A stretch of 64,000 bases of DNA, taken from assembly GCF_058153355.1 (NCBI RefSeq), contig NZ_CM177019.1. The stretch is one strand, 5' to 3'. Within the stretch, counting starts at the first letter, position 1; every line of letters starts with the position of its first letter. Of the stretch, positions 5,112 to 5,254 are shown piece after piece. The notes below the pieces were generated by a model. That model saw nothing but the letters and a program-made list of their open reading frames with translations, searched no databases and had not been told where the DNA came from. Both the position numbers and the translations under genes were made by a program.

Positions 5112-5128
5112 AATTGGCCCTACCAATT
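5112..5128. promoter_or_regulatory. Putative LldR operator O1 (inverted repeat AATTGG-N5-CCAATT)
   Basis: aattggccctaccaatt; paired with a similar site ~126 bp downstream, as described for lldPRD operators. Confidence 0.45.
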
Positions 5129-5237
5129 ATTCGCTTATCTGACCTCTGGTTCACAGTTCCCCAATTAAAGCTCACATCAATGTTGCTAATATATAACATT
5201 TGGTTAACTATTCATTGTCATTATCCCTACACAACAC

Positions 5238-5254
5238 AATTGGCAGTGCCACTT
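5238..5254. promoter_or_regulatory. Putative LldR operator O2
   Basis: aattggcagtgccactt, a near-palindrome of the same family, ~75 bp upstream of the lldP start. Confidence 0.4.

Follow-up and report, generated by a model that had tools for sequence, protein, structure and literature searches.

The two inverted repeats that precede lldP in the window (the whole 64,000-nucleotide stretch of DNA analyzed here) are almost certainly the LldR operators O1 and O2 of the lldPRD operon, functioning within the two-site model of looping and activation. What we observe is that the two sites match Escherichia coli K-12 letter for letter, that the genes around them are the expected ones, that the DNA-binding domain of LldR is unchanged from K-12, and that both boxes and the spacing between them are deeply conserved. 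Binding, the dual role of LldR, and looping at O1 and O2 are taken from the literature on K-12 DNA and would apply here by analogy, and the sequence leads us to expect the same regulation in this strain. The features on which this reading is built are the following.

5112 to 5128, no strand assigned: LldR operator O1, the predicted upstream activating and loop-anchoring site; also a PdhR box
5129 to 5237, plus strand: inter-operator region, with the lldPRD core promoter and an ArcA repressor site as placed by the literature
5238 to 5254, no strand assigned: LldR operator O2, the downstream site, predicted to be required for repression
5327 to 6982, plus strand: lldP, L-lactate permease (NCBIfam equivalog NF007740, 1199.5 bits against a cut-off of 918)
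6982 to 7758, plus strand: lldR, lactate-responsive regulator of the GntR/FadR type (FCD) (NCBIfam equivalog NF007741, 497.5 bits against a cut-off of 311)
7755 to 8945, plus strand: lldD, FMN-dependent L-lactate dehydrogenase (NCBIfam NF033901, 823.1 bits against a cut-off of 550)

Two palindromes upstream of lldP

Read directly from the window, O1 is AATTGGCCCTACCAATT and O2 is AATTGGCAGTGCCACTT. O1 forms a perfect inverted repeat of 6+6 bp around a 5-bp spacer; the arms of O2 match at five of their six positions, and its inner part is a perfect palindrome, TGGCA-G-TGCCA. The distance between the two is 126 bp, both from start to start and from center to center, which corresponds to 12.0 helical turns at 10.5 bp per turn. 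O1 starts 215 bp and O2 89 bp upstream of the lldP ATG, exactly as in K-12. The sequence-only reading had proposed related inverted repeats at 5112-5128 and 5238-5254, about 126 bp apart, and we find its coordinates to be exact and the distance to be 126 bp.

The pair was further assessed by scanning the 64-kb window for the pattern AATTGGNNNNNCCAATT (AATTGG-N5-CCAATT). With at most one mismatch, O1 and O2 are the sole matches within the window, while dinucleotide-preserving shuffles give a chance expectation of 0.21 ± 0.43 matches, and two or more matches anywhere in the window turned up in 1 of 100 shuffles. The palindrome pair is thereby confirmed as real and above chance.

Identity with the published LldR operators

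An alignment of window positions 4900-5340 with E. coli K-12 MG1655 shows that O1 and O2 are each identical to their K-12 counterparts (17/17 in both cases). The DNA between them contains no indels and eight substitutions, whereas the stretch immediately 5' of O1 is diverged or scrambled relative to K-12. The likeness to the K-12 system thus covers both 17-mers, their spacing, their distances to the lldP ATG, the order of the operon, and the DNA-binding domain of LldR. O1 reportedly spans -105 to -89 and O2 +22 to +38, coordinates attributed to Aguilera et al. in 2008. From these values we take the transcription start to lie near 5217 in the window, and the distance of 126 bp measured here is the one implied by -105 and +22.

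The same boxes have been published as LldR targets. For the yibL>lldP spacer, Table 1 of Anzai et al. 2023 lists the LldR boxes AAtTGGcCctACCAaTT and AAgTGGcactgCCAaTT, which score 12/14 and 10/14 against the LldR box AAnTGGTCnGACCAnTT (PMC10272880); recomputing these scores gave the same values, and we checked that the second published box is the reverse complement of O2 in the window, AAGTGGCACTGCCAATT. According to these authors, their lldP boxes correspond to the pair of LldR sites reported by Aguilera et al. 2008 (J Bacteriol 190:2997), no LldR target gave a higher gSELEX peak or a stronger EMSA signal than the lldP promoter, and lldR is needed for induction by lactate; the emphasis of their work is on activation and not on repression (PMC10272880). 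In addition, San Martin et al. 2013 described AATTGGCCCTACCAATT as the 17-nt sequence necessary for LldR binding (PMC3582500), and a K-12 promoter part employed for biosensors includes both boxes (PMC5412874 supplement). The proposal that the repeats are LldR operators is therefore borne out by comparison with the K-12 lldP promoter, the published operators mapping to these very sequences and not elsewhere. Judged from this match, the reading of the two repeats as the lldPRD operators O1 and O2 is supported, and these operators are already known.

The lldPRD operon and its regulator

The lldP-lldR-lldD operon is intact, each of the three gene products exceeds its NCBIfam equivalog or exception cut-off, and the gene order is the one annotated in K-12 MG1655. 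LldR carries the Pfam GntR and FCD domains and is identical to K-12 LldR at 254 of 258 residues (98%). Residues 1-123 are the same in both proteins; all four differences fall at or after residue 124, leaving the winged-helix DNA-binding domain unaffected.

The window is E. coli DNA. At the nucleotide level, its lldPRD (5327-8945) shares as much as 99.0% identity with complete E. coli genomes. Identity amounts to 90-95% in 4,328 of the 5,453 matching E. coli records, and reaches at least 99% in only 8 of them. This distribution suggests that E. coli carries two or more divergent allele classes at the lldPRD locus.

Promoter and regulatory mechanism

In K-12, the -35 and -10 elements and an ArcA operator are located between O1 and O2 (PMC8689689), and the LldR sites flank the transcription start (PMC3424551). 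ArcA is a direct repressor of lldPRD, the main text of Park et al. 2013 giving no coordinates for its site (PMC3798270). When the region between the operators was scanned for the sigma-70 consensus, neither a strong promoter nor a -35/-10 pair was detected, which fits an activator-dependent promoter.

The two-operator looping model that the sequence-only reading had invoked for lldPRD is indeed described in the literature: repression requires both sites and proceeds via looping, while activation is exerted from the upstream site (PMC3424551, PMC5412874, PMC8689689), where the complex of LldR with lactate activates transcription (PMC3424551; PMC5412874, legend of Fig. 1). In the proposed loop, the LldR molecules are positioned on the same angular face, and shortening the distance from O2 to the -10 element by 10 bp abolished induction (PMC8689689). 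This looping remains a proposed model, based on genetics and spacing, and not a demonstrated structure.

Transferred to this strain, the already published model of repression by looping and activation from O1 would operate as follows. The LldR dimer, the product of the operon's second gene, would bind both 17-bp palindromes, which would face the same side of the DNA with 12.0 turns between their centers, O1 lying upstream of the core promoter and O2 in the transcribed leader. In the absence of lactate, LldR would occupy both sites and the two dimers would interact, looping out the promoter and thereby repressing it. In the presence of L- or D-lactate, the repression exerted through O2 would be relieved, and LldR at O1 would act as an activator. 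PdhR bound at O1 and phosphorylated ArcA (ArcA-P) bound between the operators may add further repression, in relation to pyruvate status and anoxia, respectively.

Conservation across genera

We scanned species-representative genomes for LldR and collected 80 loci from genera that include Escherichia, Citrobacter, Salmonella, Pseudocitrobacter, Trabulsiella, Klebsiella, Raoultella, and Kosakonia, as well as Enterobacter, Lelliottia, Leclercia, Kluyvera, Yokenella, Superficieibacter, and Pluralibacter, among others. One locus (L009), in which tblastn had mis-set the lldP start, was left out of the spacing and footprint analyses, and six more were set aside because their upstream sequence was too short or lldP gave no match. 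The E. coli reference loci (L001-L003) are outside the count of 73 species used for spacing and inside the 77-sequence alignment used for footprinting.

Every one of the 73 usable species loci has both boxes, one at -211 to -220 and one at -86 to -94 relative to the lldP ATG. In these Enterobacteriaceae, neither box shows any variation at positions 4-6 (TGG) or 12-14 (CCA). Measured from start to start, O1 and O2 are 126 bp apart in 61 loci and 125 bp apart in the other 12, with no other value, while the distance from O2 to the ATG drifts between 86 and 94 bp. Such a fixed spacing, combined with invariant cores, points to a functional constraint on the boxes and on their relative phase, which is what the looping model predicts.

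The footprint alignment gives a matching picture. In the 77-sequence alignment, which covers the 330 bp preceding lldP, conservation is highest for the 17-mer that starts at 5112, O1 itself, with a mean majority frequency of 0.945 compared with 0.709 overall. The O2 region forms the other peak, reaching 0.94 for windows starting at 5241-5243, O2 itself standing at 0.911. Around O2, the cross-genus conservation continues on the 3' side, past the 17-bp box and through CTTTTACAC (5252-5260). A second strongly conserved block is found at about 5195-5232 in the same alignment; it presumably corresponds to the -10 element, the transcription start, and the ArcA region.

Alternative explanations

Could the palindromes be chance likenesses within AT-rich intergenic DNA? 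At two mismatches the pattern does behave as noise, with six matches in the 64-kb window where 4.7 are expected. At one mismatch or fewer, however, the two matches observed exceed the expectation of 0.21, and both fall within a 143-bp stretch upstream of lldP; the position, core, and spacing of the boxes are, moreover, conserved over 73 species, and O1 and O2 are identical to experimentally characterized sites. On the shuffle statistics, the conservation, and the identity with K-12 taken together, we reject a chance origin as wholly improbable. A more substantial question is raised by PdhR, the pyruvate-sensing paralogue of LldR, which might repress lldPRD via AATTGGCCCTACCAATT and make O1 chiefly a PdhR operator, with LldR in a secondary role. 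PdhR and LldR are paralogous regulators of the FadR subfamily of GntR proteins, and the second-best NCBIfam match of LldR is the PdhR model, in keeping with related palindromes being recognized by both. A PdhR gSELEX peak is located between yibL and lldP, the exact O1 17-mer scores 13/14 as a PdhR box in Table 1 of the same study, and lldPRD mRNA is 3.3-fold higher in a pdhR mutant (PMC7660256). The PdhR box, ATTGGTnnnACCAAT, is that of the pdhR-aceEF-lpd, ndh, and cyoA promoters, and the central bases of O1 are GGCCCTACC, compared with GGTnnnACC in the PdhR box; the effectors differ as well, being pyruvate for PdhR and lactate for LldR. Nevertheless, PdhR binding complements that of LldR and does not replace it. 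The lldP promoter is the foremost LldR target in gSELEX and EMSA and its induction by lactate depends on lldR (PMC10272880), no PdhR box has been reported at O2, and all the loci examined have the box together with lldR. We therefore regard a primarily PdhR-dedicated O1 as very unlikely; on the published data, the PdhR site at O1 appears to be real and additional to the LldR site.

The remaining alternative involves a neighboring element, found by a terminator scan.

5055 to 5084, plus strand: terminator-like hairpin followed by a T-run (13-pair stem with 7 GC pairs, then TTCTTT)

This hairpin is located between the REP and insertion sequences and O1, and the same hairpin is found in K-12. O1 and the hairpin might be conserved as the stem-loops of a minus-strand antisense sRNA, STnc380, and not through a protein. 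On the minus strand, positions 5046-5153 align to the entire model of the Rfam family RF02055 (STnc380), whose two hairpins fall on the O1 palindrome and on the hairpin at 5055-5084, and K-12 matches likewise. However, the window scores 34.3 bits and K-12 36.4 bits, both well below the gathering score of 60, and the stem positions never vary, so that covariation lends no support. At E ≤ 0.001, the model found nothing in two loci from Salmonella and one from Citrobacter, and a literature search for STnc380 matched only a different sRNA, STnc3800. The sRNA would also leave O2 and the fixed spacing of 125-126 bp unexplained, and binding of LldR to the same DNA was shown experimentally (PMC10272880). 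Being below threshold and lacking covariation, STnc380 is rejected as the main explanation, and we give it hardly any credence.

The upstream region: IS621, REP elements, and the adhesin gene

On the 5' side, the operators have different neighbors in the two genomes: a YadA-like adhesin gene and an IS621 element in the window, and yibL directly in K-12. The context features, which lie outside the regulatory element, are listed below.

3690 to 4969, plus strand: IS621 (IS110 family), 1,280 bp, inserted in a REP-like target
3882 to 4862: IS621 transposase gene, 326 aa (NCBIfam IS110 family RNA-guided transposase, 253 bits)
about 4993 to 5030, no strand assigned: REP element, GTAGGCCGGATAAGGCGTTCACGCCGCATCCGGCAAG (sub-threshold match to the REP-derived Rfam family naRNA4)

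The homologue of the transposase in E. coli N96 is annotated in RefSeq as "IS110-like element IS621 family transposase", and the element occupies the same place there. The IS621 junctions were mapped with strain 6409, in which the site is empty (...GCTTATCAGACCT|ACGGGATG...), as the reference, and show a CT core on both sides; the bounds are 3690-4969 or, equivalently, 3688-4967, depending on the copy of the CT core that is assigned. The earlier placement of the end of an upstream insertion sequence at 4967 therefore agrees with one of these two assignments. The same reading had put the insertion sequence and a REP some 150 bp from O1, which fits the 143-145 bp measured from the end of IS621 and the REP at about 4993-5030. 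This REP is the second one, sitting between IS621 and O1, and it is present in K-12 too; a query containing GTAGGCCGGATAAGGCGTTCACGCCGCATCCGGCAAG finds a median of 39 matching places per E. coli genome. Since the REP and the terminator-like hairpin intervene, IS621, 145 bp upstream, would be expected to leave the operators undisturbed.

A second IS621 copy is present in the window at 18206-19483. The two copies are 97% identical, with differences clustered in the 5' non-coding region, which in IS110/IS621 elements encodes the bridge RNA. Both sit in REP-like sequence with a CT core. In the copy at 18206-19483, a guide-like ATCCGGCCT equals the left flank of the element itself, CTTATCCGGCCT|IS; in the copy at 3690-4969, the corresponding ATCGGGCCT differs from the flank ATCAGACCT by two mismatches. 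Further upstream, the ORF for the YadA-like trimeric autotransporter adhesin (115-3630) encodes 1,171 aa when counted from the first start codon that follows an in-frame stop. Its homologues are far longer (5,241 bp in strain 6409, and at least 4,671 bp of a 5,463-bp annotated feature in N96), and the gene in the window may be truncated or disrupted, or simply variable in length.

The junction in K-12 bears on the history of this site. In both this strain and E. coli N96, the REP occupied by IS621 lies between lldP and the YadA-like adhesin gene. In K-12, the yibL stop (TAAGAAC) is followed by ACAGTATCT and then by ACAGGGTGATTC. A comparison of K-12 MG1655 (locus L001, 1526-1560) with window positions 4959-4985 and with locus L084 (1395-1405) shows that ACAGTATCT, 9 nt in K-12, equals the right end of IS621, joined to the same right flank. 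Genomes of the K-12 type lack IS621, the YadA-like adhesin gene, and a DUF3251 gene, and strain 6409 has the adhesin and DUF3251 genes; the K-12-type junction itself is found in 1,262 of 5,426 complete E. coli genomes. We tentatively read the site upstream of the lldP operators as one with an IS621 history, and the upstream boundary of lldP in K-12 may be an IS621-associated deletion scar, to which we assign somewhat less than an even chance. That the insertion present here measurably changes the regulation of lldPRD is less likely than this deletion.

Relation to other systems and significance

The arrangement at lldP is reminiscent of lac O1/O2/O3, gal OE/OI, and araO2/I1, in which two dyad operators likewise bracket a promoter at an integral number of turns, full repression depending on both of them. 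It differs from these in that the same protein, bound upstream, turns into an activator with the inducer, and in that looping at lldP has been inferred and not visualized. In the parts of the literature drawn upon here, the LldR proteins of Corynebacterium glutamicum and Pseudomonas aeruginosa are FadR-type regulators that bind a TGGT-N-ACCA-like palindrome at the lactate-utilization operon, from which lactate releases them, and they are described as simple repressors. In contrast, the dual-role O1/O2 pair with its 126-bp spacing has been reported for E. coli, and its architecture is conserved here across the Enterobacteriaceae.

O1 and O2 of the lldPRD promoter are textbook-level, experimentally characterized operators that are widely used in lactate biosensors, and their presence in this strain has little discovery value, although it illustrates that a sequence-only reading is able to locate real operators. 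The cross-genus comparison provides modest independent support for the phase-dependent two-site model. Moreover, the fixed spacing between the operators, together with the drifting distance downstream of O2, could help in porting lactate biosensor promoters across species.
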